From Patescibacteria group bacterium (lineage in GTDB: Bacteria > Patescibacteriota > Patescibacteriia > UBA1558 > GWA2-36-10), in NCBI GenBank assembly GCA_028718865.1, contig JAQUKX010000001.1, positions 67 through 64,066 of the forward strand: DNA of 64,000 nt. The letters run 5' to 3'. Positions within the stretch are counted from its first letter, which is position 1. Every line of letters begins with the position of its first letter. The notes under the pieces are model-generated. The model did not search any database. It was not told the origin of the DNA and saw only the letters and a list, made by a program, of their open reading frames with translations. Made by a program: the position numbers and the translations under genes. Positions 4,122 through 35,184 of the stretch are shown piece by piece.

Positions 4122-4199
4122 AATTATACTTAAACACTGCTAAAAAATATCTTCAATATCCTTATATTATAGCGCAAATCAGCAAAAATTGCCAAACAA

Positions 4200-4223
4200 C
4201 CCAGCCCTTCGCGAAGGGCTGGG
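4200..4223 (-). terminator. Intrinsic terminator downstream of the pilin operon: the perfect 24-bp palindrome CCCAGCCCTTCGCGAAGGGCTGGG followed by a U-rich tract on the minus strand
   Basis: The palindrome is visible at 4200-4223. The minus strand continues UUGUUUGGCAAUUUUUGC. The element lies between the pilin 3' end (4255) and the HlyD start (4121). Confidence 0.55.
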
Positions 4224-4254
4224 TTGGGCTAGGTGTTTTCAAAAAAGTTATTTT

Positions 4255-4785
4255 TTAGCGGACAACACTAATAGGATTTGTTGGAGCAGTGCCATAAGTA
4301 GTGCAGGCACCTACTGTTATTACTCCCGTAGAGCTTCTACTAAAATAATAACCTGTGCCTGTGCCTGCTACCAATGTGCCACCACCAGGATCTGTAGGAA
4401 TTTGACCAAGATAACCTTCATCTACCAAATCTTTCAAGTGTACAGAGGCTGTTGTAGTGGCATAACCTGAATTAGCAAAACCGCAATTATTATCAGCAGC
4501 TGCAAAACCATTTGTAATATGATAAATACCGCCATCGGCAACAGCTGCTCCAGTTGTCAGAGTTGTTGTTGGAGCAGAACCGCCATTGTCAGCCACATAC
4601 AGCGCCCAAGCGCTGGCAATAGAGGTCACATCAGCCCATCTCTGGGCATCATTGGCTTCACCAATACGACGAGCCGGGTTAATGGCCACAAAAGTAGCTC
4701 CTGCCAAAAGGGCAATAATAGCTACAACGATGATAAGTTCTATCAAAGTAAAACCTTTTTTATTAAAAGATTTTTTCATAATCAT
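4255..4785 (-). CDS. Type IV major pilin paralog 1 (class III signal peptide, prepilin-type N-terminal cleavage/methylation domain)
   Basis: MIMKKSFNKK-G|FTLIELIIVVAIIALLAGATFVA has Phe+1 and Glu+5. The C-terminal globular domain contains Cys. Confidence 0.85.
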   Translation of the reverse strand: MIMKKSFNKKGFTLIELIIVVAIIALLAGATFVAINPARRIGEANDAQRWADVTSIASAWALYVADNGGSAPTTTLTTGAAVADGGIYHITNGFAAADNNCGFANSGYATTTASVHLKDLVDEGYLGQIPTDPGGGTLVAGTGTGYYFSRSSTGVITVGACTTYGTAPTNPISVVR

Positions 4786-4811
4786 CTTTATTAATAATTT
4801 AGTTTATATTT

Positions 4812-5300
4812 TTAGCGGGTAACCTGAATAACTACGTTTTCATAACTAACACAAGCGCCTACTTTTATAACTCCATTGGCATCAGCGTATAAATAATAAC
4901 CCGTACTATCCGCTGTAAAACCGCCTAATGGATCAGATGGTATTGCTCCTAAATAACCTTCTGACACTAGAGTGCTCAAATCTAAATAAGCGTCGGTGGT
5001 GGTAGCATGTGGGGTGGCAACTGCGCAATGCGTAGAACCGCTTCCTCCACTAGTTATTTGATAAGTAGTGCCAGGATTAGCTACTGCCGGAGCAGTACCT
5101 CCTTCATCAGCCACATAAAGAGCCCAAGCGCTAGCAATAGAAGTCACATCCGCCCATCTTTGGGCATTATTGGCTTCACCGATACGACGAGCCGGGTTGA
5201 TAGCCACAAAAGTAGCACCTGCCAAGAGGGCAATGATAGCTACCACGATGATAAGCTCTATCAAAGTAAAGCCTTTATTTTTTTTCAAAATTTTTTTCAT
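4812..5300 (-). CDS. Type IV major pilin paralog 2
   Basis: The N-terminal ~60 aa are identical to paralog 1 (KGFTLIELIIVVAIIALLAGATFVAINPARRIGEAN…). The C-terminal half diverges. Confidence 0.85.
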   Translation of the reverse strand: MKKILKKNKGFTLIELIIVVAIIALLAGATFVAINPARRIGEANNAQRWADVTSIASAWALYVADEGGTAPAVANPGTTYQITSGGSGSTHCAVATPHATTTDAYLDLSTLVSEGYLGAIPSDPLGGFTADSTGYYLYADANGVIKVGACVSYENVVIQVTR

Positions 5301-5334
5301 TTTTCTATACTTAATAATTTATCTATAATATATT

Positions 5335-5814
5335 TTAACGCATGACTTCTATAGGACCGCCAGCATAAGCGCTGGTATAGCAAGCGCCTATTCTCAATAC
5401 TCCATCATCCATGCGCAGATAATAGGCAGTGCGCGGACTAGTGGTGGCCGGATCACTAGGTATCTGGCCAATATAGCCGCCACTAATCAAGGAGCTAAGG
5501 TCTAAATATTGAACAGTGCTGGTAGCATCAGTGCCGTCAACACAATGACTAACCGGACTGGGAGTAATTGCTCCTCTGATTTGATAAACAACACCCGAGC
5601 TTAGAGAGGCTGGAAGCTCTCCGTAATTATCAGTCACATAAAGAGCCCAGGCATTGGCTACAGCCGTGATGTCAGTCCATCTTTGGGCATCATTGGCTTC
5701 ACCAATACGCTTGGCTGGGTTGAGAGCCACAAAAGTAGCGCCCGCCAAGAGGGCAATAATGGCTACCACGATTATAAGTTCTATCAAAGTAAAACCCTGT
5801 CTTTGTTTAATCAT
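5335..5814 (-). CDS. Type IV major pilin paralog 3
   Basis: QGFTLIELIIVVAIIALLAGATFVALNPAKRIGEANDAQRW… has a conserved N-terminus and a divergent C-terminus. Confidence 0.85.
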   Translation of the reverse strand: MIKQRQGFTLIELIIVVAIIALLAGATFVALNPAKRIGEANDAQRWTDITAVANAWALYVTDNYGELPASLSSGVVYQIRGAITPSPVSHCVDGTDATSTVQYLDLSSLISGGYIGQIPSDPATTSPRTAYYLRMDDGVLRIGACYTSAYAGGPIEVMR

Positions 5815-5905
5815 AAAATATTAACAATTCCAAATTTATCCAAAATATATATAAATATCAAAAAGATTACAGACTGATTATAGCATATTTTACTTTTAGC
5901 GCCAA

Positions 5906-7681
5906 CTAATTGGGCAAAACAAGCTGAAAATTGAACAAAGCACCATCAGCCGAAACACTATAATTGAGCAACTCATAAGGCTGCTCGGTCAAACGATTCA
6001 AATCTCCAGCCAAAACTCTCCAGTCAGAATCTAGAACCAATAAATCGGCTAATTTCTCCCAAGAAAACACCAGAAACTGGTAACGAAAAGTAGCCAAGAC
6101 CGTGCTCTGGCCAATGACAAAATCATCTTCCTGGGGATTGGCTTGGACTATCTCATAATCCAAAACCAAAGGCGCCAGGCCGTATTTGCTTTTATCCACA
6201 TAGGCGTCCAGATTGCCCAGAACCTGGCTTCTAGCTTCCTGCTCCATCAAATCCATCAGCTCATAATAATCCGCTTGCGGGTCGCTTTTATATCTATTGA
6301 TACTCACATGATGATATTCTCCCAAAATAAAATTGCTCCGGCTATTGTCAGGATTGCTACCCACAGTAAAATTGAATTGACCGGACGTTGGCGCTGGCCT
6401 GACTGGCTGCTCTAGAGATGGCGCTGGCAACTGGACCAAAGGAGATTTGCTTTGGAAAATAGAATAAATATGATCGCGAAAAACCAAAAGCAAAATTGCC
6501 AAAAGCAGCAAAAGCAAAAAGGCAAAATTGCGCCTTCTCAGCAGCCGGCTTTTGGCTTTTGACCAAAAAGAATCCGCCTGCTTCTGATCATCTAGCTCTT
6601 CATCATCAGTCAAAGCCGAACTGCCTTTTGGCTGGTCGGGCTTAATAACAACAAAAGATAGCTCTGGTTTTTGGTAAGCCAAAACCGCCAAACCCAAAGC
6701 ATTGATATATTTGACAGCAGAGATATCCGAGGGCAAATCTCGACTGTCAATCAAACTGGAGCCGACATAAGCCGGCAAAGATAAATTTTCACCAAAGTAC
6801 TTATCCAAGCCTTTCATCTGAGCCAATCCTCCTATCAAAACCACCTGCTCTATCGGCGCCTGATTTTGGCTATTGTAGTAGGCAATAAAAATCTTGAGCT
6901 CGTCAGCCAAAGGCTGTAGCTGCCCTTGGATAACCAGCATGGTCTGACCATCATCTACAGCTGTCAAGCCAATATTTCTTTTTTTGTCTTCAGCTGTTGT
7001 ATAAGAAACCCCCAATCTGTTGACCAAGGCCTGATTAATGGCATTACCACCGATATTGATATTGATGCTTTCTCTGATGCCATTTTTATTAAAAATACTG
7101 GCAATAGTGGTGCGAGCTCCCAAATCCAAAAGCAAAGTAACGCTCTTTTTATAATCCCCGGCCAAGCCGACAAAAGAGCTGACTGCCTCCGGTACAATTG
7201 ACTCTATAGCCAAGCCCAGCTCGGCAAAGACAGCGGAAAAATCAGCCAGCACATCAGCCGGACAGGCAAAAAATAAAACTTCTTTATTGCCGTTTTTAGC
7301 TGGCAAAAATTTCAAAGCAATTTTCAGCTGATCAAAAGCATAGGGAACAAAACTCTCCGCTTGATTGTAAACCGCGCTGACAATTTCTTTTTCTTTGAGA
7401 TTTTTGGGCAGAGAAAAAACCTTGGAGAAAATTTTGGATTGAGGAATAGATATTATCACCTTATTGTATTTTTCCATTGAAGATAAGCTGGCATTTTTGA
7501 GTAATGCCGCCAGTGCTTCTTTGAGCCGTGCTCTGTCCAAAATCCTACCGTCCTCCACTATCTCGGGTGACAGCCGGAAGCGGGAATAAGTTTTGAGCTT
7601 AAAACCATTTTTTTTCTTATCCAAAACCACCGCTTCTATGGAAAAATCAGAAATATCAATGCCGATAATTTCTTTGGCCAT
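5906..7681 (-). CDS. pilM: PilM-like actin-fold pilus assembly ATPase fused to a TM segment and a PilN/PilO-like extracytoplasmic domain
   Basis: The N-terminus MAKEIIGIDISDFSIEAVVL… is a typical PilM/FtsA fold covering ~350 aa. It is followed by a basic stretch, a TM helix (FAFLLLLLLAILLLVF) and a ~200-aa C-terminal domain. Confidence 0.7.
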   Translation of the reverse strand: MAKEIIGIDISDFSIEAVVLDKKKNGFKLKTYSRFRLSPEIVEDGRILDRARLKEALAALLKNASLSSMEKYNKVIISIPQSKIFSKVFSLPKNLKEKEIVSAVYNQAESFVPYAFDQLKIALKFLPAKNGNKEVLFFACPADVLADFSAVFAELGLAIESIVPEAVSSFVGLAGDYKKSVTLLLDLGARTTIASIFNKNGIRESININIGGNAINQALVNRLGVSYTTAEDKKRNIGLTAVDDGQTMLVIQGQLQPLADELKIFIAYYNSQNQAPIEQVVLIGGLAQMKGLDKYFGENLSLPAYVGSSLIDSRDLPSDISAVKYINALGLAVLAYQKPELSFVVIKPDQPKGSSALTDDEELDDQKQADSFWSKAKSRLLRRRNFAFLLLLLLAILLLVFRDHIYSIFQSKSPLVQLPAPSLEQPVRPAPTSGQFNFTVGSNPDNSRSNFILGEYHHVSINRYKSDPQADYYELMDLMEQEARSQVLGNLDAYVDKSKYGLAPLVLDYEIVQANPQEDDFVIGQSTVLATFRYQFLVFSWEKLADLLVLDSDWRVLAGDLNRLTEQPYELLNYSVSADGALFNFQLVLPN

Positions 7682-7702: not shown

Positions 7703-8797
7703 TTATTCTACTACAGTTATATTCAAATACATAGAGTAGTCGCCAGCGTATTCGTAAGATCTGATAGAAAGCTCTCGGCTATAGCCTGCTCCTGGATCTT
7801 CCACACCTATGAGAAATCTGGTTTTGCCGGTCTTGTTGATATAAGCCAATTGGCCTGATGTCAGTTTATAAAAATACCAGCCGGCTGATAAAAAAGTGCC
7901 ATTGTGGATAATATGCCACTGACTACCGGAAAAAACCTGAATATAAAAAGTCTTGGTCGGTTGAGCGGTCTTGGGCGGAGCACCGGTAGTATAATCATGC
8001 AAATATAAATAAAGATCCGCTTCCAAGATAACTGCATCATCTGACAAAGCACTGGTATTGATATCAGCATAAGAAAAAGAAGTGACCGCTGGCTCAAAAA
8101 CGGCATTATAGGTTGCCAATAGCGTTGTGGCATCATCAACTGTTCCTTGAGTAGTGTGCACATACCAATCATCACTGCCAGCAGCTATCTGATAATCATA
8201 GATTGGACACTCGCCGCAATCCTCTGGACAAGTCTGGCAATTTTCCTCTCCATTACAGCTGGCATCGCCGCAATAAGCCGACGATACATAATCAGGCAAG
8301 GCTGCGCGAGCAGTGAGCTCTAGAGCTGTGCCATAGCTCTGGCAGGCGCCAAAGACAATCTGTCTATCCCCTTGACGGCTGATATAATAGCCCGAGTCTA
8401 GAGCTGATTCTTTGCTTGGATCAACTGGCAAGCTGGAGAGATAATTTGTTAAAAAATCACCACTGACCACTACGCAAGACAAGTTCTGACCGTCACAGCT
8501 CAAAGTCGCAGCACTGGAACATAATACCCGCTTTTCTCCTTGAGCCAAGTCTTCCAAATCAAAAAACTCCGGCAGCTCGTCATTGTCTAATTGATAAAGC
8601 TCTATAGCTCGAGAAATTCTGGCCAAGTCTTCGACTCTTTTGGCATCTTGGGCTTTGCCAATTTTATCTTCAGAATTGACTGATAAAAAGACTACTAGGG
8701 AAACAATAGCCAAAATCGCGACTGCCAATACCACCTCCATCAGTCCAAAGGCCTGGCGATTTTCAATTATTTTATTTTTCTTGCTATATTTTTTCAT
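7703..8797 (-). CDS. Minor pilin-like protein with a Cys-rich C-terminal region
   Basis: The N-terminus …RQA|FGLMEVVLAVAILAIV is prepilin-like with Glu+5 if cleaved after Ala. The C-terminus contains CGDASCNGEENCQTCPEDCGECP. Confidence 0.5.
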   Translation of the reverse strand: MKKYSKKNKIIENRQAFGLMEVVLAVAILAIVSLVVFLSVNSEDKIGKAQDAKRVEDLARISRAIELYQLDNDELPEFFDLEDLAQGEKRVLCSSAATLSCDGQNLSCVVVSGDFLTNYLSSLPVDPSKESALDSGYYISRQGDRQIVFGACQSYGTALELTARAALPDYVSSAYCGDASCNGEENCQTCPEDCGECPIYDYQIAAGSDDWYVHTTQGTVDDATTLLATYNAVFEPAVTSFSYADINTSALSDDAVILEADLYLYLHDYTTGAPPKTAQPTKTFYIQVFSGSQWHIIHNGTFLSAGWYFYKLTSGQLAYINKTGKTRFLIGVEDPGAGYSRELSIRSYEYAGDYSMYLNITVVE

Positions 8798-8806
8798 ATA
8801 TTTTAT

Positions 8807-9655
8807 TTATAAACATAAATTGGTACAGATAGTACAGCCTTGGCAATATGTTTCACGATTACAACCGACCGGAAAAGTATAACATTGATTGCCCGCGTCA
8901 CTTCCAGTATAATCACAAGTTTCATTTCTAGTAACATAGCCTGAGCAAGTGCTGTTGCAAAAATTGCCGTTCTGTACTATACCGTCTCCGCAAGAGCCGG
9001 CATTTTGTGGTGGATCGCAAACCTCTGGGGCTTGTACTGTACTATCACCGCAAGATCCCTCATAAGGCACGCCTGCCGTACAAGCCATCTCACAGGACTC
9101 ATTGCAGGAAAGAGCGCCTCCCAAAGAACAGCTCCATCCGGACAAGCCGCTGGGGTCAGCTGATCCGTCGCATTCCTCTGTTTGCTCATCCCAAACACCA
9201 TCGCCACAATAGCCGGCCGAACTAGCCGAGGCATAAGCTGATTGATCATTTTTGTAGCTATAGACTGAAATAGGCGTAGAAGAGACATTGATTGTGGCAA
9301 TAACCGAGCTTTGCCAAAAGCCAAGCGAAGAAGTACTGCTGGCTGAAAGCAAAACTTCTTTTAAGCCGGACATTATCTCAGTGGCAATTTCATAATCGCA
9401 GTCTATGCCTATCCCCGCCAAAGAAAAATAACCTGCTTCAGCATAATCCGATGATAAGCGCAGCAGAGCTTCATCCAAACAAGCTGCCAGCTTAGCCTCC
9501 ACCATCGCTCTTTCACTGATCTGATAATCTGCTTGGCTGTCGGAAATATTAATCAAAGAAATAGATACTGCTGCCAGAAGAGTAAGCGCTGTGATCATTA
9601 TCACCATTATCAAAGCAATTGCTCCTTGATTTTTTATTTTTATAAACTCAAGCAT
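8807..9655 (-). CDS. Minor pilin-like protein with Myxococcus-type cysteine-rich repeats (CGDGxxxxxEECD)
   Basis: The N-terminal hydrophobic segment QGAIALIMVIMITALTLLAAV lacks Glu+5. The C-terminus has CGDGVWDEQTEECDG … CGDGIVQNGNFCNSTC, matching the TIGR02232-type repeat from memory. Confidence 0.45.
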   Translation of the reverse strand: MLEFIKIKNQGAIALIMVIMITALTLLAAVSISLINISDSQADYQISERAMVEAKLAACLDEALLRLSSDYAEAGYFSLAGIGIDCDYEIATEIMSGLKEVLLSASSTSSLGFWQSSVIATINVSSTPISVYSYKNDQSAYASASSAGYCGDGVWDEQTEECDGSADPSGLSGWSCSLGGALSCNESCEMACTAGVPYEGSCGDSTVQAPEVCDPPQNAGSCGDGIVQNGNFCNSTCSGYVTRNETCDYTGSDAGNQCYTFPVGCNRETYCQGCTICTNLCL

Positions 9656-9679
9656 AAGTATATTTATTTGTTTATTTTA

Positions 9680-10990
9680 TCAATAATCACCCGCCGATTG
9701 TAAAGCCGCCAGCTCGGCGTTGCTCAAAGCGCGATTGTAAAAACGAACTTCATCAACAATACCGTGAAAAGCTGTAAGAAAATTAATATAAGGACCATCG
9801 GTTATAGTATTGACCAGCTTGATAATGGGAGTTGAAGCACTGAAATTAACCACCACTCCTGTTCCTACTCTATAAGCATAAGCTTTTAATAATTCCTGCT
9901 CATAATCATAAATGCAAGCCAAAAAATAAGTTTGAGCGGCACCTATGACACTGACATTTGAATAAACTTGCTGGTAAGCATTATCATCATAAATGCGGCA
10001 ATAAAAACGCCCATCTTCTCCATCAATAAACATATGATATCCTCTTTGATTGCCTGTATCTGCTTTAAAAATAATAGAATGCTCGGGATCTTCCAAAACC
10101 TCAGGTTTCACCCAAGCGGTCAAAGAAAAAGCATCGCCAAAATTCAAATCATCGGGATTAGTCGGACTGTCAGGAGCGCAATTGGAAGTATTGCCATCAG
10201 CATAAGGAAAGTCAAGAGCATAACTACTGCCGTCAATCAAGCCGGCAATATAATCAGGGCTCGTGATGCCACTGCAATCAGCGTCATTATCACCTGCGCT
10301 ATCTAAAGCAGTCGTTCCCGAGCCTTCTTCAAAGCGCCACCAAGTCACTGGCCCGCGAGACTGGGCAGCCAAAACAGCTACAGTGCTGGTAGCCGCTGAA
10401 ATATCCTTGAGCTCTGACTGACCAGCTACTAGAGAGCCTAAAGCCAAATAACTGTCTATAGAAATGTAATCACTACTGATAGATGAGCCCTCGGCCAGAG
10501 AAAAATCAAGCCCATTGTCCAAAACTGCCAAGCTGGGCGAGCTAAGATAATAAACATTTTGCGCTGGATAATAACTATCATCGCAATTTTTATGATAGCC
10601 ATTTCCCGGCATATCAGGATGACAACTGATTGCCAATCGCCTATCTTTAAGATTGATTTTGACGCCGCCGCCTGTCCCAACGCAAGCTCCGGGCAAATGC
10701 TCATCATCGGCAAAATAAAGCGCTAACAGCGAAGGCGAAGAGGAAAACTCCGAACAATAACCCAAAGTATCCTGCAAGAGTCCGTCGGAATTTTTTATCA
10801 AATAATCCAGAGCTGCCAAAGACAGGCGGCGGCTGGCGGAGGCTTCTGTTTTGGCTGACAGCTTAGCGTAATTATTTCCCAAGACCAAATTCAAATTTAT
10901 CACTGAGGTAAGTAAAATCGCCACAATGGCCAGATAGACCACTGTCTCTACTAAGGTAAAGCCTGATTTTTTTAATTTTATTTTCCTCAT
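9680..10990 (-). CDS. Pseudopilin with a C-terminal LamG-like (concanavalin A-like lectin/glucanase) domain
   Basis: N-terminus KKSG|FTLVETVVYLAIVAILL with Glu+5. The C-terminus …DEVRFYNRALSNAELAALQ is the characteristic Laminin_G_3 terminal motif. Confidence 0.65.
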   Translation of the reverse strand: MRKIKLKKSGFTLVETVVYLAIVAILLTSVINLNLVLGNNYAKLSAKTEASASRRLSLAALDYLIKNSDGLLQDTLGYCSEFSSSPSLLALYFADDEHLPGACVGTGGGVKINLKDRRLAISCHPDMPGNGYHKNCDDSYYPAQNVYYLSSPSLAVLDNGLDFSLAEGSSISSDYISIDSYLALGSLVAGQSELKDISAATSTVAVLAAQSRGPVTWWRFEEGSGTTALDSAGDNDADCSGITSPDYIAGLIDGSSYALDFPYADGNTSNCAPDSPTNPDDLNFGDAFSLTAWVKPEVLEDPEHSIIFKADTGNQRGYHMFIDGEDGRFYCRIYDDNAYQQVYSNVSVIGAAQTYFLACIYDYEQELLKAYAYRVGTGVVVNFSASTPIIKLVNTITDGPYINFLTAFHGIVDEVRFYNRALSNAELAALQSAGDY

Positions 10991-12966
10991 CTATAATCTA
11001 TCTTCAAAGAATAAAGCGTCGGCGTATCAGCATTGCCGTTGCAGGCCGTCAAAGTGGCCTTATATCTAAGATAACGATAACCATTTAAAATATCAGGCGT
11101 GCTGCTGGCATAAGAAGAACCGTTATCGCTAAAAGTATGAGCAACCGGACTGGCAAAAGAGCTGCTGTTGTCCGCTTCCAAGTCTACACTCACTGAACAG
11201 CCCGCAGGCACATCTTGGCTCACCGATATGGCTCGCAACTCCTTATCACTGGCGCCCAGATCAAAAATTGAAGAATAAATATAGCCAGGAGAATTGTAAC
11301 CGGACAGACCCATTTCCTCCTCAGCTCCAACCGCAAAAAAAGTGGACGGCGAGCTTTGATTATTATATTCTGTTTTTATCCAATCAACATTTCTAAGTAT
11401 ATTAGAAACTTTTAATTCATCAATTATACCATCAAAAGCCCTATCCGTAGCATTGGAACGATTGCCTATTCTAACACCAGAGGTAGATGTTATTCCCGAC
11501 AAAGCATTAGTAGCCCCAACCGATCCACTTTGCACTCCGTTGATATAAAAAGTAGTAGTGCCATTGGCCGCCACTGTCACTACCACATGATACCAGGTGC
11601 TGCCATTATAATTGATGCTACCGGAAGCCGAAGTTCTAATCAAAGCGCCGGCGGCGGTAAAACTAACATAAGTGCTCTGACAAAAAAGTACCCAACCAGC
11701 TTGAGCTGAAGAGCCGTTGGACTTATCTATTATTCTGCCTGAACTAGCTCCTCCTAAAGTATCCGGCTTCATCCAAACCGATATGGTCATTCCTGAAGTC
11801 AACAATTGGCTAGAATGATGGGGAATATTGACATAATCATTGGAGCCGTCGTAATCTTGAGCCTTACCTATTCTTCCATTTATTTCCACCGGCTCCCCGC
11901 TTGCTTTTTTAGTACCCTGATTATTGGCATTAGCGCTATTTTTTATAGCCGAAGACGATCCATCGGGTTTATGATAAACCATTATATGATAATCATCCCA
12001 AGTATTATAAACATCCTCCTGACTAGTACTAATATCTCCATTTCCATAAAACATATAAATTATCGTATCAGTATTTCCCGGTAAAGCAGGAATTTTTACC
12101 CAAGCAATCAATTCGCCTGTGGCTGGATTATATCTTTCTATTTCATGAGATAATTGATTTGCTCCTTCTTCATCAGAAGTGAAAATAATATCATAGCCGT
12201 TAGCGCTTTCTACTTTACCGCCGTTGGCTGTGCTTTTCAAATAATCCTCAGTCAAAGAAACAAGCATAGGAAAATCAACGTGCGAAAGATCGCCTGACAC
12301 CTTAGTGTTATCTATAGTTATTGTCCGTCTATAATTATAAGATCCAGGAGAAAAAGATAAATCAAGTTGACTGGGAGTAGAAGTGCTCACATTGCTATAA
12401 ACAGTAGAAAACATATCTGCCTCTGACCAAAAAGCTCTGGCGCCATTGCCTGACCAGTCGCTCTGCCGCCAGCTCTGATAAGACCAGTTGCTCAAATAAG
12501 CGCTTAGCACATAATCGCTTATCCCCGGCCCGGAAACTGTCACTATTACTTTGTAAGTATTGAGATCTAAGCTGCCGCCCTCTGAGACGATATTGCCGCT
12601 TTCATCACGATATACATCTTCTATTTCCACTGTCCGGCTCAAAACTCCCAAACTGTCGCTAGTGCCGGCAAACTGCCAGTTTCCCCCGCTGTCTTTGGAC
12701 GCTCCCAGAGCTCCCTGGCCGGCAGCATCTTCTATGGCCTGCCAGCTATTGTCTCTGATGGCTCTGGCTGCTGAGAGTCCTTCCTGAGCAAATTTGGCTA
12801 CCTGCTGCCGGTCGCCGGCGCCAAAAAAATTGCGGTAAGAATTGGTAGCTACATAAAATACTCCCGCGGTTAAAATAGAAAATATTGCCAAGGCAGCTAT
12901 TACTTCCATCAAAGAAAAACCTTTTTGCCCCAGCTGATTTTTATATTTTAATATTTTAAAACTCAT
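10987..12966 (-). CDS. Large pseudopilin (659 aa) with a C-terminal LamG-like domain
   Basis: N-terminus QKG|FSLMEVIAALAIFSIL. The C-terminus …DELKVSNILRNVDWIKTEYNNQ is the LamG-3 terminal motif. The start overlaps the downstream gene by 4 bp (ATGA coupling). Confidence 0.65.
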   Translation of the reverse strand: MSFKILKYKNQLGQKGFSLMEVIAALAIFSILTAGVFYVATNSYRNFFGAGDRQQVAKFAQEGLSAARAIRDNSWQAIEDAAGQGALGASKDSGGNWQFAGTSDSLGVLSRTVEIEDVYRDESGNIVSEGGSLDLNTYKVIVTVSGPGISDYVLSAYLSNWSYQSWRQSDWSGNGARAFWSEADMFSTVYSNVSTSTPSQLDLSFSPGSYNYRRTITIDNTKVSGDLSHVDFPMLVSLTEDYLKSTANGGKVESANGYDIIFTSDEEGANQLSHEIERYNPATGELIAWVKIPALPGNTDTIIYMFYGNGDISTSQEDVYNTWDDYHIMVYHKPDGSSSAIKNSANANNQGTKKASGEPVEINGRIGKAQDYDGSNDYVNIPHHSSQLLTSGMTISVWMKPDTLGGASSGRIIDKSNGSSAQAGWVLFCQSTYVSFTAAGALIRTSASGSINYNGSTWYHVVVTVAANGTTTFYINGVQSGSVGATNALSGITSTSGVRIGNRSNATDRAFDGIIDELKVSNILRNVDWIKTEYNNQSSPSTFFAVGAEEEMGLSGYNSPGYIYSSIFDLGASDKELRAISVSQDVPAGCSVSVDLEADNSSSFASPVAHTFSDNGSSYASSTPDILNGYRYLRYKATLTACNGNADTPTLYSLKIDYR

Positions 12967-12970
12967 AATT

Positions 12971-14029
12971 TTAATAATCTTTTAGACACCTGACCGACAG
13001 GCCGTAGCTCTTGTCCAAGTTGGCGCTGTTGAAATTAGCGTCGTTTTCATTGTAATAATAAACTGCCTGACTGCCGTCATACTGACTGGAAGTCCAAAAA
13101 AAAGCTTTGCTGCCATTATCGGCAAAAGCGCCGCCGCCACTAGTATTTCTCTGTCCGGCCAAAAGCAGATTGAATCCCGACTGGCCGCCTATAGCCAACT
13201 CATTGCCCGGCAAAGCATAAAGCCCGGCTAAGGCTGCCCATTGAGCGCTAGTGGGCAGATGCCAGCCGGCCGGACAAATGCCTCGGGCTCCTTCGCCAGT
13301 ACCATAAGCCATCAATTCATCCCAGCTATACAAACCGCCATAGATATCGCAATTAGCTTCGCTATTACCATAGCACCATTTTTCTAAAATATCATTATCA
13401 CTAGGATTACTTATAGCGCTTTCTAGCATCTGACCGCTATTGAGATTTTCCGCCAGCCAGCAATTGTCAGCTATTTCCACAGTATTATAAGCCTGACCTT
13501 GACTGTCATAGGCTTTGCTCTGGCCGCAGGTAAAAACATAAGCCAAGCCGCTGGGCAAAACCCGGACGCTTTTTTTCAGGCCAAAATTGCTCTCCAGAGC
13601 AATATCTTCCTCCTCACCGCTAGATAGCCAGCCGCTGCCAAAAGTAAAATAAAATTCCCGCTCCTGATTATCAGCCAAGTAAACGCCGGAATTGCGCTCG
13701 CCAAAATTCAATTGGCGATCAAAAGCACTATCCCTATCATCATAAAAATTGCCTTTGAACAAAATCAAACAATCCCCGTCCGACGAGCAATCGTCGCTCT
13801 GCGACAAAACCTTTATACCCCAGACATCGCCCATGTAGCCGCTGCGGGAATAATTCTGAGCGCGGCTGACAATGTCAGCTACTTCTCTGGCTTTGGCGTC
13901 AATATCATCTTCAAAAACTCGCGAATTCAAAACCGTAAAAGCGCCGGCCAAAATAATCAAAAAAACCGCTACTATCAAAAGCACTTCCACCAAAGTAAAG
14001 GCTCTTTGTTGTTTGCAAAAAAATATCAT
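12971..14029 (-). CDS. Pseudopilin with a Fibrobacter-succinogenes-major-paralogous-type domain (FISUMP, CPxGWHLP…W signature)
   Basis: N-terminus QQRA|FTLVEVLLIVAVFLIIL. The C-terminus contains CPAGWHLPTSAQWAAL, the hallmark of TIGR02145. Confidence 0.55.
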   Translation of the reverse strand: MIFFCKQQRAFTLVEVLLIVAVFLIILAGAFTVLNSRVFEDDIDAKAREVADIVSRAQNYSRSGYMGDVWGIKVLSQSDDCSSDGDCLILFKGNFYDDRDSAFDRQLNFGERNSGVYLADNQEREFYFTFGSGWLSSGEEEDIALESNFGLKKSVRVLPSGLAYVFTCGQSKAYDSQGQAYNTVEIADNCWLAENLNSGQMLESAISNPSDNDILEKWCYGNSEANCDIYGGLYSWDELMAYGTGEGARGICPAGWHLPTSAQWAALAGLYALPGNELAIGGQSGFNLLLAGQRNTSGGGAFADNGSKAFFWTSSQYDGSQAVYYYNENDANFNSANLDKSYGLSVRCLKDY

Positions 14030-15231
14030 TACCTTCCTAGTTCTCCGGTTAAATTATAAATTGGATTAATAATAGACATGGCGGCAAAGGCCACAGACAA
14101 GCCAATAATCACCAAAAGCACCGGCTCCAGCATAGTGGAAAGATTTTTGGTAATTACATCCACTTCATTTTCATAAAAATCCGCCAGATAATCCAAGGTC
14201 TCGCTCAGCTGTCCGGAATTCTCCCCTACTCGCGTCATCCGTGAAACCAGCGAGGGAAAATAAGAGCGGCCGGCCAAGGCATCAGCCAAAGACATGCCTT
14301 TGAGTATTTTGTGATAGACCAAAATCACCTCTCTTTTATAAACTTCGTTGCCAAGAGTCTGGGAAACTATCTGCAGAGCCCTGTCTATGCTGATACCGCT
14401 ATCCAGTAAAGATGCAATAGTGCGGCAAAACAAAGCCAAGTTCATCTGTCTGTCTAACTTGCCCAAAATAGGCAATCTTAAAATAAAGCTATGAATAAAA
14501 TAACGGCTATTTTTAAATTTAAGTAATATTTGCCAAGCTACAAATATTCCAAAAATAACCCCCAAAACCGCCAGCCAATTTTCCGCCATAAAACGGGATA
14601 TAACTATCATCATTCTAGTAGTCAAAGGCAAAGTCACATTGAGAGAATCAAAAAAGCCGATTATTTTGGGCAGAACATAAGCGGAAATCAAAGCTCCCAA
14701 GGCAATCACTGCCAGTAGTACCACTGTCGGATACATAGAGGCGGCCTTGAGCTTGCTTCTCAGTTCATAGGATTTTTTTTGCTGGCTAGCCACTATAGCC
14801 AAATTTTTGGCCAAAGTGCCGCCCTCTTCACCGACCGCTACCATGTTGATAAACATTTTATCAAAATCTTTGGGGTGCTTGGCCAGAGCCGCTGACAGCG
14901 AATGGCCCTTTCTGACATCAACCAAAACTTCATTAAGCCTTTTGTTGAGCACTGACGAAGAATTATCAGCCAGAGTTTCCAAAGCCGCGTCTATGGTCAT
15001 ACCTGCTTTTATCATCACTGACAAATGCTGCGCCAGCATTACTTTTTCCACCAGTCTTACTCGGCCTATTATTATACCGCCAGCCTTTTTTTTCTCACCA
15101 GCCATTTTCAGAGAAATCAGAGTACCGGGCTGCAAAGCCAAACGATTTCTAGCTTCTTTGGCGCTAGCTGCTTCTATGGTTCCTTGGCTGATTTTGCCTT
15201 GGCTGTCGCTTATTTGATAATGAAAAATCAT
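14029..15231 (-). CDS. pilC: Type IV pilus inner-membrane platform protein PilC (GspF family)
   Basis: 400 aa with two GspF repeats and three TM segments; GspF-family motifs are visible. Confidence 0.85.
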   Translation of the reverse strand: MIFHYQISDSQGKISQGTIEAASAKEARNRLALQPGTLISLKMAGEKKKAGGIIIGRVRLVEKVMLAQHLSVMIKAGMTIDAALETLADNSSSVLNKRLNEVLVDVRKGHSLSAALAKHPKDFDKMFINMVAVGEEGGTLAKNLAIVASQQKKSYELRSKLKAASMYPTVVLLAVIALGALISAYVLPKIIGFFDSLNVTLPLTTRMMIVISRFMAENWLAVLGVIFGIFVAWQILLKFKNSRYFIHSFILRLPILGKLDRQMNLALFCRTIASLLDSGISIDRALQIVSQTLGNEVYKREVILVYHKILKGMSLADALAGRSYFPSLVSRMTRVGENSGQLSETLDYLADFYENEVDVITKNLSTMLEPVLLVIIGLSVAFAAMSIINPIYNLTGELGR

Positions 15232-15243
15232 ATTTTATAAAAA

Positions 15244-16968
15244 TTATTGCTTAGTGGCTCTAAATATTTCTTCCAAAGTGGTTTTGCCGGAAATCGCCTT
15301 GTTGAAACCGTCTTCAAACATAGTGGTCATGCCATTTGCCATAGCTTTCTTTTTTATCTGATCAGCATCAGCTCTGGCCATGATTAGTTCTTTGATATCA
15401 TCGCTGATTTCCAAAACCTCAAAAATTCCAATACGGCCGCTGTAACCGCTTTGATTACAGCTATCGCAACCCTTGCCTTTATAGAATCTGATTTCTTTGA
15501 CTCTATCTACATCAAAAAACTTACTCAGATCAACTTCCGAGCTCAAATCACGGATTTCTTTTTCCGCCAACGTATAGCTGACTATGCATTTCATGCAGAT
15601 TTTTCTCAACAGTCTTTGGGCAATAATTACATTGACAGTAGACGAGACCAAAAAAGGCTCTACTTTCATGTCCAAAAGCCGCGGTAAGGCAGTAGCCGCA
15701 TCATTGGTATGGAGAGTGGACAAAACCAAGTGCCCAGTCATAGCCGAATTGACGGCAATGCCGGCTGTTTCCTTGTCTCTGATTTCTCCGACCATGATGA
15801 TGTCTGGATCTTGCCGGAGCAAAGACCGCAGTCCTTCGGCAAAAGTAAGGTTGGTCTTGGGATTGACCTGAATCTGATTGACGCCTTCCAGGTCATACTC
15901 CACTGGATCCTCGATTGTGCAAATATTGACATCGCGGCTATTGAGCAGCTTAATCAAAGCATACAAGCTAGTAGTTTTGCCCGAGCCTGTCGGACCAGTA
16001 GCCAATATCATGCCATAAGGCCGCTTGGCTGCCCGCTGGACTATCTTGAGGTCTTTTTCTACCATGCCCAAATCTTCCAAGCTGAATTGCTGGCCTTTGG
16101 AGGACAAAAGTCGCATGACCACTTTTTCGCCATGGGTAGTGGGTACAGCCGAAACACGGACATCTACTTTTTCCCCTTCCACAGTGGTGATGATTTTTCC
16201 ATCTTGAGCTGCCCGGCTTTCATCAGTCCTAAGATGAGCCAATATTTTTATTCTGGTAACAATCAAATCCAAAACTCCTTTGGGCAGAGACAAAACATCG
16301 TATAATATGCCGTCTATTCTGAATCTGATTTTTATTTCTTTTTCTTCGGGGTCAATATGGACATCGGAAGCATGGTTGCTATAAGCATAGCTAAACAGAT
16401 CGTCCACCAGCTTGACCGCTGACAGGCTCTCGGCCTCACCGCCTTGAGCTTTGATGGCTTGCTTCTGGATGCTGGCAGCATACTCCTGCTCAATTGATTT
16501 GCGGTAAAGGGAAAAATTATTTTCAATATCATAGACCGTGGCATAATAAGGCACGACTTTATCCCCGGCCTTTTTCTCCAGCATTTTTATCATCTGATAG
16601 TCAAAAGGATTGGCCATAGCCACCTTGATGCCTTCTTGATCCCTTTTGAAGACTATCATTTTCTGCTTGCGCGCCACTATTTCCGGCAAGAGATTGAGCA
16701 CCTCCGGCGGGATTTTTTCTTTTTTGAGATCGACGAATTTGACATGGAGATTATTGGCTATCAGCTGGCCGATCTCCTCTGATTTGATCAAATCCTGCTT
16801 GATCAAAAAAGTAGTAAAATCCTTTTTCTTTTCCTGAGCGGTTTTTATGGCCTGATCCAAAACCTCGGGCTTAATCAGTCCTATTTTGCTGATGATTTTA
16901 TAAATTTTGACGTCGCTTATAAGTTCCATAAAATTAACTTTCAATATTATTGGCCGGAATATGGCCAT
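15244..16968 (-). CDS. pilB: Type IV pilus assembly ATPase PilB (GspE family) with N-terminal T2SSE_N domain
   Basis: Walker A ATGPTGSGKTTSLYA, Asp box, Walker B and His box. A tetracysteine motif CMKC…CDSC is present. The true start may be M14 (MELISD) near 16929. Confidence 0.9.
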   Translation of the reverse strand: MAIFRPIILKVNFMELISDVKIYKIISKIGLIKPEVLDQAIKTAQEKKKDFTTFLIKQDLIKSEEIGQLIANNLHVKFVDLKKEKIPPEVLNLLPEIVARKQKMIVFKRDQEGIKVAMANPFDYQMIKMLEKKAGDKVVPYYATVYDIENNFSLYRKSIEQEYAASIQKQAIKAQGGEAESLSAVKLVDDLFSYAYSNHASDVHIDPEEKEIKIRFRIDGILYDVLSLPKGVLDLIVTRIKILAHLRTDESRAAQDGKIITTVEGEKVDVRVSAVPTTHGEKVVMRLLSSKGQQFSLEDLGMVEKDLKIVQRAAKRPYGMILATGPTGSGKTTSLYALIKLLNSRDVNICTIEDPVEYDLEGVNQIQVNPKTNLTFAEGLRSLLRQDPDIIMVGEIRDKETAGIAVNSAMTGHLVLSTLHTNDAATALPRLLDMKVEPFLVSSTVNVIIAQRLLRKICMKCIVSYTLAEKEIRDLSSEVDLSKFFDVDRVKEIRFYKGKGCDSCNQSGYSGRIGIFEVLEISDDIKELIMARADADQIKKKAMANGMTTMFEDGFNKAISGKTTLEEIFRATKQ

Positions 16969-17377
16969 TGCCGTTTCTGGCCTGCTTGCTCATAGTAGTG
17001 GAGTTGAGATAGCGGCTTATTTTCTCCACCAAAGTAGCCAAAGTAATATTATCTTTTACTAGATAATCCACTGCTCCCAAGTCTATGCCTTTTTTGACAT
17101 CATCTTCCTGGCCCAGATTGGACAAGATAATCACCGGTACGGCGGCGGTAGCCGGGTCACTGCGCAGCTCAGTCAAAACCTCAAAGCCGTTTTTCTCCGG
17201 CATTATCATATCCAAAATAATCAAATCTGGATCATTTATACGCGCCTGCTCCAAGCCTTCCTGGCCGTTGGCGGCCAAAAACACTTCATAGCCTCTTTCT
17301 GATAACTCGGCCTGATAGACTTTGCGCAAAAAATTGTCGTCATCTACAAAAAGAATTTTTGGTTTGCCTTCTGCCAT
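16934..17377 (-). CDS. Single-domain response regulator (CheY/PilH-like receiver)
   Basis: KILFVDDDNFLRKVY…ILDMIMPEKNGFEVL…KGIDLGAVDYLVK carries the phospho-acceptor Asp and the conserved Lys. Confidence 0.8.
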   Translation of the reverse strand: MAEGKPKILFVDDDNFLRKVYQAELSERGYEVFLAANGQEGLEQARINDPDLIILDMIMPEKNGFEVLTELRSDPATAAVPVIILSNLGQEDDVKKGIDLGAVDYLVKDNITLATLVEKISRYLNSTTMSKQARNGNGHIPANNIES

Positions 17378-17383
17378 AAAAAT

Positions 17384-18934
17384 CTAAAATAAATTATTAA
17401 TATCTAATACCAGCACTGGCCGGCCTTTGGAAGAAATAGCCGCGCCTTTGAAATATTTCTGCCCTAGCATGACGCTGGGAGTTTTTTTCATCACCAATTC
17501 GCTTTCGGAAATATTGCCATAAACCGGCAAGGCCAATTTTAACTTGCCTCTTTTGACCAGCAAAAGATAACGATAAGAGGCCGGCAAATTTTGTTTCAGA
17601 GCCAAACGATCCAATAGCTTGACTGAGAAAACATGATTGTCGTGCCGAAAAGTCTTGGTTTGAGAAAAATCCTTTTCCTGCTCCAGCTTGACTACCTTAT
17701 CCACATAAGCCAAAGGCAAAGCCAGCCGATAATCTTTGATTCTGATTATAAGAGCCCGAAAAACCGACAAAGGCAGAGGAAAATCCACGACGAATTTGGC
17801 GCCTTTGCCTTTTTCGCTCACTATATCAATACTGCCGCTTAGCTCTTCCACTTTGCTTTTGACCAAATTGAGGCCTATGCCCCGGCCCGAGCTGAAGGTG
17901 AGGCCTATGCCTTTGGAAATACCGGCAACAAAAATCAAATTTTTGATTTCCGCTATGGTCATTTTTTTGGCTTTTACCGGACTGACTATTTTGTTTTTGA
18001 CTGCCAAAGATAATATTTCCTGCCAATCTATGCCTTGGCCATTGTCAGACACACTGATTATCATCCTATCGTCTCTAAGAGCAGTTGACAGCACTATCCG
18101 GCCGTTTAGCTGTCCTTTGGCTATGCCGTGGGCTGCCGCATTTTTGAGCAGCTGTATGACTATTTCCATCAACTCATCAAGTATCGCCTTATCCAAAGAA
18201 AAATCATTGTCTTCAATTACCAACTCTATTTTTTTGCCTTCAGCGTTGGCGATTTCTCTGACCAAATAAGGCAAAGAGGAAAAAACCTGCTTCAAGGGTA
18301 CTATTCTGATTTTCTCCAAATCACGCCGCATATCCCCTAGGATCTTCTCTGCTGCCAAATATTTGGCCAAAAATCCCGTATCACCGCTTTTTTCCGCCAA
18401 AAGCTTGGTTTCCAAAATATTTATCAGCAGATCTTCCAAATAATTTTGGATTTTATCCAGCTTGTAAGTAGGCACGGTAATTTCCGCTACTGACGGCAGG
18501 CTGCTCAAGATGTGTTTTTCTTTGACGGTTTTTTTATCGGCCTTGGTTTTTTTGGCTTTGACGCTCAAGAAATCCGCTAGACGCTGGCTTTGCCCCAGCA
18601 GATTGATTTCTCGATTTTTTTTGTCTATGGATTCAATATTTTGTTTGAGAATATCTAGGGTAGAAAAAAACAATTCCAAGCCTTTTTTGTCCAGCTTGAT
18701 ATCGCCGCTATAAGCGCTGTCAATGATATTTTCCAAAAGATGTAGCAGTTTGACGGTTTTTTTGTAGGCCATGGCCGCGGCCGCGCCCTTCATAGAGTGA
18801 ATCAAGCGAAAAATATTTTCTATCAAATTCTGATTTTGAGGCTTTTTTTCCAGATAAAGCAAAAATGTAGAGAGTTTTTTTAACTGCTCCCGACTGGTAG
18901 AGAGATAAAGGTCTTTGTATTTACTGCTGATCAT
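17384..18934 (-). CDS. CheA-like histidine kinase (HPt, HATPase_c and C-terminal CheW-like domain)
   Basis: The HPt motif is IHSMKGAAAAM. The G1/G2 boxes are VSDNGQGID and GRGIGL. The C-terminal ~130 aa are a CheW-like beta-barrel. Confidence 0.75.
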   Translation of the reverse strand: MISSKYKDLYLSTSREQLKKLSTFLLYLEKKPQNQNLIENIFRLIHSMKGAAAAMAYKKTVKLLHLLENIIDSAYSGDIKLDKKGLELFFSTLDILKQNIESIDKKNREINLLGQSQRLADFLSVKAKKTKADKKTVKEKHILSSLPSVAEITVPTYKLDKIQNYLEDLLINILETKLLAEKSGDTGFLAKYLAAEKILGDMRRDLEKIRIVPLKQVFSSLPYLVREIANAEGKKIELVIEDNDFSLDKAILDELMEIVIQLLKNAAAHGIAKGQLNGRIVLSTALRDDRMIISVSDNGQGIDWQEILSLAVKNKIVSPVKAKKMTIAEIKNLIFVAGISKGIGLTFSSGRGIGLNLVKSKVEELSGSIDIVSEKGKGAKFVVDFPLPLSVFRALIIRIKDYRLALPLAYVDKVVKLEQEKDFSQTKTFRHDNHVFSVKLLDRLALKQNLPASYRYLLLVKRGKLKLALPVYGNISESELVMKKTPSVMLGQKYFKGAAISSKGRPVLVLDINNLF

Positions 18935-19365
18935 AAGCCCAATTGCTCAAAAATTTTCTCCGGCTCCAAAATATAAAATTTTTCCTTATTATGCTTGATA
19001 TAATTTTTAAAAATCTTAGCTTTGGCATCTTTGAAAACCTGACGGATTTTTATTATCTGACCGCCTTCATCAACTGCCAGCGCAAACAATTCTTCTTCTT
19101 TTTTGAAAACTAGATAAAGCTCGGACTGGGTTTTGGTTTTGCCCGACAATAGCTGATGACCAGACAAAACAGTGATCAACTGGCCGTTTTGGTAAGCCAA
19201 GCCAAGCACTATAGGCAGCAAAGCTGGCAAAGGCAATACCCTGTCATAGCGGACAAAAGAAAGAGTTGCTGGCAAAGGCATCAGATACCAAGCTCCGGAA
19301 ATAGCAAAGGAAATATATTTTTTATCTGCTGGCGGCATTCTATTTTCTTTCTCCCAATAAATCAT
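18931..19365 (-). CDS. CheW-like coupling protein
   Basis: 144 aa with the CheW pattern YISFAISGAWYLMPLPATLSFVRY … LAVDEGGQIIKI. The real start is probably M10. Confidence 0.6.
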   Translation of the reverse strand: MIYWEKENRMPPADKKYISFAISGAWYLMPLPATLSFVRYDRVLPLPALLPIVLGLAYQNGQLITVLSGHQLLSGKTKTQSELYLVFKKEEELFALAVDEGGQIIKIRQVFKDAKAKIFKNYIKHNKEKFYILEPEKIFEQLGL

Positions 19366-24500: not shown

Positions 24501-25379
24501 ATAATGGGAAAATGGTAAAAAAGTAAAGACCCAAAAAAGAAAAAATTTTTTTCTGCCCACACTAGCAAACTTCCAAGACTCCTGAGCATAGTAAATTGCT
24601 CGTTTTTTTTCGCCCAACAAAAGTAAGCCTACAGCCGCGCCATAAGCTGTACCTGCATACCTATTGGGTGAATTTTTTATAAAAAAATCTCTGGTGTTTT
24701 CAAGTAAATACTCCAAACCCTTTGCTCTTTTTATTGATAGATCGGGATGAAAAGATTTTCTTTTTTTTGTTTCTGAAAGATGATCTGAATGCAAATAAAC
24801 CTTTCCCAAAGATTCGTTAAGGTGGTATATTTTTTTATTTTCAGAAAACAAAAAATAAAAAGAAAAATCAATATTGGGACCCAAAAAATCTAAGCCGCTC
24901 CTAACGCTTGATCTTAAAAAAATTACCGCATCATTTTTGGGGATTTTGCCGGAAAAAAGATCGGCTCTATCGGCAAAACCGCTGTCTCTATGCTGAAAAT
25001 CTAATATCTTCTGCCCATCAAAAAAATCCGTAGGAGCATAAAGCATGTCTATCTCCGGATATTTTTTTAAAATATCACTTGCCTTTTCAAGGGCATGATT
25101 GTATAACTCATCGTCACTATCCCAAATAATAAAATAATCACCCCTCATCACTTCCATACCTTTGTTTCGGGCAACAAAAGCGCCGGAATTTTTTTCTAAT
25201 TGAAAATATTGAATTCTTTGATCTTTTACCCCCAACACCATCTGAGTAGTTCCATCACTAGAACCATCATCTACTATTATCAATTCGAAATTAGTAAAAG
25301 ACTGCCTTAAAATACTATTTATAGTCCTTCTCAACAAATCTTTTCTATTGTAAGTTGCAATAATAATACTAAAAAACAT
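24456..25379 (-). CDS. Glycosyltransferase family 2
   Basis: FSIIIATYNRKDLL…VDDGSSDGT…WDSDDEL (DxD). Confidence 0.85.
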   Translation of the reverse strand: MFFSIIIATYNRKDLLRRTINSILRQSFTNFELIIVDDGSSDGTTQMVLGVKDQRIQYFQLEKNSGAFVARNKGMEVMRGDYFIIWDSDDELYNHALEKASDILKKYPEIDMLYAPTDFFDGQKILDFQHRDSGFADRADLFSGKIPKNDAVIFLRSSVRSGLDFLGPNIDFSFYFLFSENKKIYHLNESLGKVYLHSDHLSETKKRKSFHPDLSIKRAKGLEYLLENTRDFFIKNSPNRYAGTAYGAAVGLLLLGEKKRAIYYAQESWKFASVGRKKFFLFWVFTFLPFSHYLFRFFSRAYSKNKY

Positions 25380-25387
25380 AAATCAAT

Positions 25388-26831: not shown

Positions 26832-26848
26832 AAAAATTAATTATAAAA

Positions 26849-28296: not shown

Positions 28297-28299
28297 AAA

Positions 28300-29451: not shown

Positions 29452-29457
29452 GGATTT

Positions 29458-35169: not shown

Positions 35170-35184
35170 ATTTTATATAATTTT

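Follow-up and report, generated by a model that had tools for sequence, protein, structure and literature searches.

In this study, we have characterized an array of type IV pilin genes in a 64-kb window (the whole stretch of 64,000 nucleotides that was analyzed, positions 67 to 64,066 of contig JAQUKX010000001.1, assembly GCA_028718865.1) from an uncultured, ultrasmall Patescibacteria group bacterium, and we conclude that the locus is a fairly ordinary multi-pilin array, with past exchange of stalk-coding DNA and without programmed antigen switching. The array, at positions 4255-5814, consists of three complete type IV prepilin open reading frames (ORFs), here called A, B, and C, arranged head to tail on the minus strand; an earlier interpretation made from the letters alone (the sequence-only reading) had described three tandem pilin paralogs at this site, and that description is borne out, each ORF matching Pfam N_methyl. 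The best explanation of the array, which on balance we judge probable, is that a type IVa-like pilus operon ends distally in this array, which encodes co-transcribed small paralogs of the major type, with converted stalks, that are likely to be interchangeable subunits.

A common stalk and divergent heads

The genes, the slots that they occupy, and the spacers between them are as follows.

5335-5814, minus strand: pilin A (slot 1), an ORF for a prepilin of 159 aa with the leader MIKQRQ followed by G-FTLIE; Pfam N_methyl, 1.3e-8; Gly, Ala, Ser, and Thr (GAST) content, 38%
5301-5334, minus strand: A-B spacer, 34 nt, 9% GC, with neither a hairpin nor a Shine-Dalgarno (SD)-like motif; the version in the related contig L166, introduced below, is nearly identical
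4812-5300, minus strand: pilin B (slot 2), an ORF of 162 aa; N_methyl, 2e-9; GAST, 43%
4786-4811, minus strand: B-C spacer, 26 nt, 8% GC
4255-4785, minus strand: pilin C (slot 3), an ORF of 176 aa, or of 174 aa from a second ATG at 4779; N_methyl, 8e-9; GAST, 47%

All three proteins pass the gathering score of the N_methyl family (34.5 to 37.1 bits, versus 21.2), the sequence reading ..KGFTLIELIIVVAIIALLA.. in this region. Each starts with a short basic leader, followed by GFTLIELIIVVAIIALLAGATFVA, with cleavage predicted before F+1 and with E+5 present, and the mature proteins have 152 to 165 aa. The database copy of pilin C (P0014) has 174 aa, and the head of C carries a 7-residue insertion relative to the heads of A and B. 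No frameshifts or other signs of decay were found in B or C, in which the leaders, E+5, and both cysteines are intact. AlphaFold2 (AF2) models, of B at full length and of a head, predict a lollipop fold (predicted local distance difference test score, pLDDT, of 88.0 for the full length and 88.9 for the head), in which a continuous helix spans precursor residues 13-65, with a kink at N-P-A, and is followed by a head with four to five beta strands. A basic leader, an alpha1 stalk helix of about 55 residues, and a small disulfide-containing head make up the predicted architecture common to A, B, and C.

The repeat search returned one family of direct repeats of 194 nt, with three copies at a spacing of about 520 nt, two of which are 88% and 78% identical to the reference copy.

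5612-5805, minus strand: repeat copy 1, the alpha1-coding part of A; 78% identical to the reference copy, with the breakpoint between ...ALYVTD and N
5089-5282, minus strand: repeat copy 2, the alpha1-coding part of B; 88% identical to the reference copy
4571-4764, minus strand: repeat copy 3, the alpha1-coding part of C; the reference copy

Since the helix in the AF2 model of B spans the residues given above and the head follows it, the repeated block is predicted to be exactly the alpha1 stalk-coding part. The stretches 4620-4760 and 5110-5270, which the sequence-only reading had named for comparison, both lie inside repeat copies. Over mature residues 1-56, taken as the 5' half in the pairwise identities, B and C are 98% identical in amino acids and 90% in nucleotides, A and B are 84% and 83% identical, and A and C are 86% and 82% identical; in the 3' half, these values are 43% and 54% for B-C, 44% and 51% for A-B, and 34% and 52% for A-C. 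The claim that some 60 N-terminal codons are nearly identical at both levels therefore holds for the proteins but not for the DNA, in which the longest perfectly identical runs among the 5' halves are of 15-26 nt. The sharp drop beyond this block is real: BLASTN aligns B with C over 212 nt at 86.8% and yields no match between the 3' halves of A, B, and C. The heads have not diverged completely, however, as had been supposed; their proteins are homologous at 32-44% amino acid identity (tblastn E values of 1e-8 to 1e-15) and keep the motifs GY(L/I)GxIPxDP, GYY, and VGAC and two conserved cysteines. Pairwise alignment, the check that had been proposed for a sharp boundary between identity and divergence, located one: the maximum chi-square method puts the breakpoints at mature residues ~55-62, where the predicted alpha1 helix ends. 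For A-B and A-C, the breakpoint lies between ...ALYV(T/A)D and N; that of B-C follows within a few residues.

Gene conversion of the stalk-coding block

The likeness of the 5' halves extends to synonymous positions. Where two copies encode the same amino acid, their 5' halves use the same codon 32-43 times, versus 18-23 times expected from the codon usage of the window (z of +4.1 to +5.6, or 2.9-4.1 with the pilins' own usage), whereas same-codon use in the 3' halves is at expectation (z of ~0 to 1.3). Synonymous divergence (dS, Nei-Gojobori) in the 5' halves is 0.52 for B-C, 0.63 for A-B, and 0.75 for A-C, versus 1.0 for B-C, 1.6 for A-C, and an undefined (saturated) value for A-B in the heads. 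The nucleotide identity of the 5' halves is thus higher than amino acid conservation explains, which was the outcome that the sequence-only reading had needed in order to stand.

A related contig, L081, allows the histories of the two halves to be compared. There, a pilM gene that is ~65-75% identical to the pilM upstream of the array in the window is followed by two pilin genes, X1 and then X2. X1 (slot 1) has a B-type head that is 70% identical to B in nucleotides, and the partial head of X2 (slot 2) is of the A type (25/32 aa), so that the order of head types is swapped relative to the window. The leader of X2 (MKKSFSKK) resembles that of C (MKKSFNKK), and it was considered as a hint of mosaicism but was dropped, the 5'-half identities of 80% and 77% not being significantly different. 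In a triplet test with B, C, and X1, the informative sites of the 5' half group B with C (17 versus 4; binomial p=0.007), while those of the head group B with X1 (72 versus 34), and the incongruence between the halves is significant (Fisher p=5e-5). Because dS between the orthologs B and X1 does not differ between the halves (1.2 and 1.1), the asymmetry between 5' half and head is specific to the paralog pairs. The 5' dS of the paralogs is lower than these values, so that the paralog 5' halves date from after the speciation, an event that both head types precede. Such incongruence is the classical signature of past gene conversion confined to the 5' block.

The family to which the array belongs shows the same pattern. 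A family profile search of 1.84 billion representatives returned 192 clusters (50% identity) at an E value of 1e-30 or better, with named members in metagenome-assembled genomes (MAGs) of Komeili-, Parcu-, Nomura-, Gracili-, Peregrini-, and Peribacteria. Tandem copies are present at 26 of the 67 loci with full-length members (two copies at 22 loci and three at 4). For pairs within a locus, the share of same codons is 0.63 in the 5' half versus 0.52 in the head (26/34 pairs; Wilcoxon p=0.003), and for pairs from different loci, it is 0.40 versus 0.42. For 13 genes, a paralog supplies the nearest 5' half and a different genome the nearest head; 5 genes show the opposite pattern. Long identical 5' tracts occur in four tandem pairs from Komeilibacteria and Parcubacteria.

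L009, 5512/6028: tract of 108 nt; heads, 40% aa identity
L002, 2860/3398: tract of 84 nt; heads, 59% aa identity
L088, 3417/4013: tract of 83 nt; heads, 55-58% nt identity (range for L088 and L091)
L091, 4006/4545: tract of 69 nt; heads, 55-58% nt identity (range for L088 and L091)

These tracts point to much fresher conversion than that in the window, whose array appears to be a moderately decayed example of a recurrent process in the family. Elsewhere in the search results, a contig from an uncultured member of the Peribacteria (L044, 666-8148) has seven consecutive pilin-like ORFs with weak matches to the family profile (49-78 bits), including what appears to be a duplicated pair of ~390- and 450-aa genes, an unusually large pilin array.

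It could be argued that no recombination took place and that the 5' halves are alike because of purifying selection on alpha1 combined with codon bias or selection on the mRNA. Alpha1 is indeed conserved across the family, with a mean between-locus 5'-half identity of 67% in amino acids and many invariant columns. We nevertheless disfavor this explanation and regard it as very improbable: the same-codon excess survives both corrections for codon usage, the same-codon rates between loci are alike in the two halves, the 5'-half dS of the orthologs B and X1 exceeds that of the paralogs B and C, and the triplet incongruence is left unaccounted for. Selection on the mRNA of alpha1, in particular, is disfavored by the between-locus 5' value of 0.40. 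The comparisons indicate instead that past gene conversion was limited to the stalk-coding block, and that the alpha1-coding halves are kept alike by strong, family-wide purifying selection together with episodic conversion between neighboring copies. Conversion has set synonymous divergence back in the 5' halves alone; the heads are old alleles, homologous but highly diverged.

A second related contig, L166, is ~92% identical to the window across the tail of pilM, the promoter, all of A, and the A-B spacer. Its ortholog of A, Y1, is 93% identical to A in nucleotides in both halves, with a nonsynonymous divergence (dN) of 0.005-0.008 and a dS of ~0.3. Slot 2 of L166 (Y2) is 80-90% identical to the window in the 5' half but 43-62% identical across the 3' half, with a head unrelated to that of B (54% nt identity), and in slot 3, identity returns to 79-92% in the 5' half. 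Since the background divergence of 8% rules out point mutation, the unrelated allele in slot 2, next to a conserved slot 1, must on these alignments be a replacement. Among related genomes, replacement and reordering affect entire slot genes or heads.

Predicted transcription unit and genomic neighborhood

Signals for transcription were predicted at the two ends of the array.

5877-5905, minus strand: sigma-70-like promoter, TTGGCG, 17 nt, TGCTATAAT, with an extended -10; 10/12 matches plus TG (promoter scan)
4197-4226, minus strand: intrinsic terminator 3' of C, a perfect GC-rich palindrome of 15+15 nt (100% complementary) followed by the U-rich tail UUGUUUGG

The promoter sits directly after the pilM stop codon. 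Its -35 TTGGC and the TGyTATAAT are invariant in the window, L166, and L081, the remaining spacer of L081 being only ~55% identical. The RNA of the terminator folds into a 13-bp stem (z of -3.25) that none of 200 shuffled sequences equaled in stability. A promoter scan of the minus strand upstream of B and of C found no promoter-like site, and the spacers of 26-34 nt are unstructured. With one conserved promoter before A, one terminator after C, and none in the spacers, A, B, and C are most simply predicted to form one tricistronic unit. The sequence-only reading had proposed that each copy, being preceded by an AT-rich spacer, could also be expressed separately; AT-rich spacers do exist, but they are too short to hold a promoter, and none was detected in front of B or C. 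The spacers were also considered as regulatory elements, and this was ruled out because AT-rich upstream regions that lack an SD motif are found genome-wide: only 3 of the 41 genes examined in the window are preceded by an SD-like motif, and the starts follow AT-rich, unstructured sequence.

High GAST content is a criterion for major pilins (PMC11623550), and A, B, and C have 38-47% GAST versus 23-25% for PilB and PilM. Together with their small size, the dedicated conserved promoter, and the presence of five larger pilins, which would suit roles at the tip or as minor subunits, this leads us to infer that A, B, and C are major-type subunits. A long minus-strand pilus run ends with these three genes, its order being MCP-CheW-CheA-CheY (MCP, methyl-accepting chemotaxis protein), PilB, PilC, five large pilins, PilM, and then A, B, and C, so that the PilB, PilC, and PilM assembly core lies in the same strand run as the array.

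5906-7681, minus strand: pilM, 591 aa, directly upstream of the array; Pfam PilM_2, 3.9e-34
7703-14029, minus strand: five large pilin or pilin-like genes with extra Pfam domains, including Laminin_G_3, DUF2341, and Fib_succ_major; presumed minor or tip subunits
14029-16968, minus strand: pilC (Pfam T2SSF, 6e-61) and pilB (Pfam T2SSE ATPase, 4.5e-133); assembly machinery

Several features of this run deserve mention in their own right. The PilM_2 domain covers only residues 7-307 of the 591-aa PilM; the other ~280, with a hydrophobic segment among them, may correspond to a PilN/PilO-like part that has been fused on. Just upstream of pilM, at 7703-8797 (minus strand), lies a gene for a 364-aa pilin with an N-terminal module of the A/B/C family (hidden Markov model score of 72 bits; tblastn with the head of C, E=8e-7), a Cys-rich linker (CGDASCNGEENCQTCPEDCGEC), and a C-terminal domain of ~190 aa without a Pfam match; its sequence suggests a modular pilin built on a major-pilin scaffold. 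Four large ORFs occupy 8807-14029 (minus strand), between pilC and the 364-aa pilin. In three of them, the N-terminal motif of prepilins is joined by Laminin_G_3 (ConA-like lectin), DUF2341, and Fib_succ_major domains, and the 282-aa one is Cys-rich and without a Pfam match; the large ORFs are candidate adhesive tip subunits. Directly upstream of pilB, at 16934-20494 (minus strand), are a weak match to an MCP signal domain, below the Pfam cutoff, and genes for CheW, a CheA-like kinase (Hpt/HATPase/CheW), and a CheY-like receiver. The position of this chemosensory set next to pilB suggests Pil-Chp-like control of the pilus in a Candidate Phyla Radiation (CPR) genome.

Downstream of the array is a HlyD/MacB ABC efflux operon that is unrelated to it. 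The same operon of HlyD, ABC ATPase, and MacB/FtsX also comes after the final pilin gene in a relative at greater distance (L082/L083, 154-627 and downstream), so the junction between pilin array and efflux genes is syntenic across lineages. Farther away, a low-GC island at 24400-35200 (30-35% versus ~42% elsewhere) is rich in glycan genes, with a GT2 and several GT4/GT1 glycosyltransferases, three methyltransferases, a polysaccharide deacetylase, and an AsnB-like amidotransferase. Genes for a Bac_transf priming transferase, epimerases, and a Wzx-like flippase lie on its flanks, and the island probably represents a cluster for surface glycans that has been exchanged horizontally. A 727-aa protein encoded at 39345-41528 (minus strand) has a Wzy_C (O-antigen ligase family) domain and TPR repeats. 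Pilin O-oligosaccharyltransferases (PglL/PilO) belong to the Wzy_C family of Pfam, and by analogy, this protein could glycosylate the Ser/Thr-rich pilins. An ORF of 1,185 aa at 42861-46418 (minus strand) has no Pfam match at an E value of 1e-4 or better, and the window contains no tRNA genes.

Alternative readings and comparison with known systems

Alpha1 is the polymerization interface, through which A, B, and C would all be built into one filament core. Their near-identical polymerization helix, single transcription unit, and single assembly machine suggest that they are most likely interchangeable substrates of that machine. It can be imagined that the outcome would be either a mixed (heteropolymeric) fiber or condition-dependent fibers with different surfaces, and different surfaces could vary adhesion or host recognition and the epitopes that are exposed. 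Homogenization of alpha1 would keep all copies compatible with one filament core, and variation would be generated not by a programmed switch but on an evolutionary time scale, through recombination that uses the conserved 5' block as its anchor.

Several observations weigh against parts of this interpretation. PilE1 and PilE2 of Streptococcus sanguinis, one proven heteropolymer pair, share "extensive sequence identity" (PMC10628169), whereas the heads here are only 32-44% identical in amino acids. Foldseek searches of the PDB gave no significant match of the head to a solved pilin (the best was PilA4; E=0.16, TM score of 0.34-0.42), and neither a prepilin peptidase (PilD, peptidase A24) nor PilT was found among the ~50 ORFs scanned in the window. 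The close comparators are two short contigs, L081 (1.9 kb; sample ERZ27315056) and L166 (1.8 kb; sample ERZ17914141), beyond whose span slot orthology is uncertain; scans of genomes and of metagenomes and a further protein search, with A as the query, found no others. The 5'-half dS between B and Y2 is 0.86, above the background of 0.3, so that slot 2 may represent a whole-gene exchange and not a head swap. Finally, the 5' dS of the paralogs is at least 0.5, versus 0.3 to the closest relative, L166, and identical runs do not exceed 26 nt; the last homogenization in the lineage of the window was therefore not recent.

The number of pilins that actually build the fiber can be read differently. 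It is possible, although somewhat unlikely, that A alone does so and that B and C are low-abundance, conditional, or nonassembled accessory paralogs. A heads the array behind the promoter and has a conserved counterpart in the close relative, the pair A-Y1 is under strong purifying selection (dN of 0.005-0.008 at a dS of 0.3) while slots 2 and 3 differ between the window and L166, and there is a parallel in Legionella, where only PilA2 of the pilA1/pilA2 pair was detected in pili (PMC13170364). B and C, however, keep their leaders, E+5, both cysteines, and a near-identical alpha1, have the highest GAST content (43-47%), and show no decay, and it is a B-type gene that occupies slot 1 of L081. 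We think it quite unlikely that each paralog forms its own homopolymeric fiber on the same machine and thereby serves a separate role (DNA uptake, adhesion, or motility, for example), after the model of Thermus. The strong differences between the heads (32-44% aa identity) and the insertions in C would fit such a division of labor, as would profile matches to Thermus PilA4 (6xxd) and PilA5 (6xxe, 8qqj), but these run only through alpha1. TM7x does make two distinct pili (PMC11623550); its fibers, though, come from two loci with two PilB ATPases, whereas here there are one operon, one pilB, and one promoter, and a near-identical alpha1 offers no basis for the sorting of subunits.

Programmed, high-frequency antigenic variation, either by Neisseria pilE/pilS cassettes or by inversion of the Moraxella Piv type, is exceedingly improbable. 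Tandem copies with a common 5' block and variable 3' parts, and the evidence of past recombination, are what such a system would display, and the sequence-only reading had taken the cassette-like arrangement as the substrate expected for gene conversion or for antigenic and functional variation of the fiber. As a substrate for switching, the array is disfavored on several counts. All copies are full length, with leaders; tblastn and blastn searches of the window with the heads and 5' halves recovered only A, B, C, and the 364-aa modular pilin, and hence no truncated, promoterless, or silent copies. A G-quadruplex (G4) motif, (G3+N1-7)x3G3+, is absent from both strands of the window, and no recombinase or invertase domain was found among the ~50 ORFs scanned. 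These results speak against a system of the pilE/pilS type, which would need silent cassettes and a G4 element, and the minus-strand orientation of every copy, with no recombinase in the neighborhood, speaks against an invertible segment of the Piv type. Apart from the terminator palindrome, the repeat search returned a single inverted repeat, with 15-nt arms separated by 91 nt. The identity of the 5' blocks (78-90%, in runs of at most 26 nt) and a paralog dS of at least 0.5 also speak against frequent exchange. The sole other contig with the exact proteins (Logan SRR22315506), an independent assembly, is identical over 4.6 kb, although a comparison of assemblies does not reach variation within a population.

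We return to the reading of A, B, and C as co-transcribed, interchangeable subunits with converted stalks. A bolder version of it, which is tentative and in our view unlikely, would make the alpha1 block a portable recombination anchor: heads would be swapped among paralogs or imported from other strains, possibly through DNA uptake by the same pilus, conversion of alpha1 would keep new heads compatible with the core, and the array would be an evolvable repertoire for host recognition and adhesion in obligate episymbionts. In Patescibacteria, type IV pili are the best-supported organelle for attachment to a host, and cultivated Saccharibacteria require them for episymbiosis (PMC11623550). Arrays of two to three tandem major-type pilins are found in many environmental CPR lineages; their stalk-coding half evolves in concert, and their heads diverge and, from one close relative to another, are exchanged for others and change order. 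Such an array provides a testable handle on the diversification of the contact surface and calls for caution with phylogenies of pilin genes. A conserved alpha1, a variable head, and multi-pilin loci were known already; the array extends this picture and introduces no new mechanism.

In Neisseria, silent pilS donors are truncated at the 5' end, without the alpha1-coding part, and conversion alters the variable 3' region of pilE in a G4-dependent manner. The array resembles that system in that copies of pilin genes recombine, which in Neisseria alters the exposed part of the subunit; here, in contrast, all copies are complete, no G4 is present, and the converted part is the conserved 5' half. 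Thermus PilA4 and PilA5 form distinct fibers, wide and narrow pili, respectively, and are not tandem paralogs with a near-identical alpha1. The array would share with Thermus thermophilus PilA4/PilA5 (6xxd, 6xxe) the use of several major pilins on one machinery, although the fold match to PilA4 is not significant.

TM7x has two pili, T4P-1 and T4P-2, which are encoded at two loci with one PilA each and have a role in host binding and motility (PMC11623550). As in TM7x, the predicted pilus is a type IVa-like one of Patescibacteria, with a small major-type pilin (highly expressed in TM7x) and large minor pilins with accessory domains, but a tandem array of several major-pilin paralogs is not described in that study (PMC11623550). 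Legionella species carry 1-4 homologs of the major pilin, and L. pneumophila pili show only PilA2 (PMC13170364). The likeness lies in a single locus with 2-4 related major-type pilin genes in many species of the clade; unlike the copies here, pilA1 and pilA2 are 72% identical, with differences along the whole length and no sharp boundary between alpha1 and head (PMC13170364).

A further parallel in arrangement is the monoderm S. sanguinis, whose PilE1 and PilE2 polymerize stochastically into a pilus with a mosaic surface (PMC10628169). These two pilins resemble each other along their whole length, unlike A, B, and C with their divergent heads. The sequence match to the S. sanguinis pilin (8pfb) is confined to alpha1 (E=1.3e-5), and the array has three copies versus two, its co-assembly being suggested by analogy. 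Like pilE1/pilE2, however, A, B, and C are tandem full-length paralogs with matching alpha1 in a secretin-less pilus operon (PMC10628169, PMC6497953), and as S. sanguinis has modular minor pilins with lectin-type modules, so the large pilins here carry Laminin_G_3 domains.

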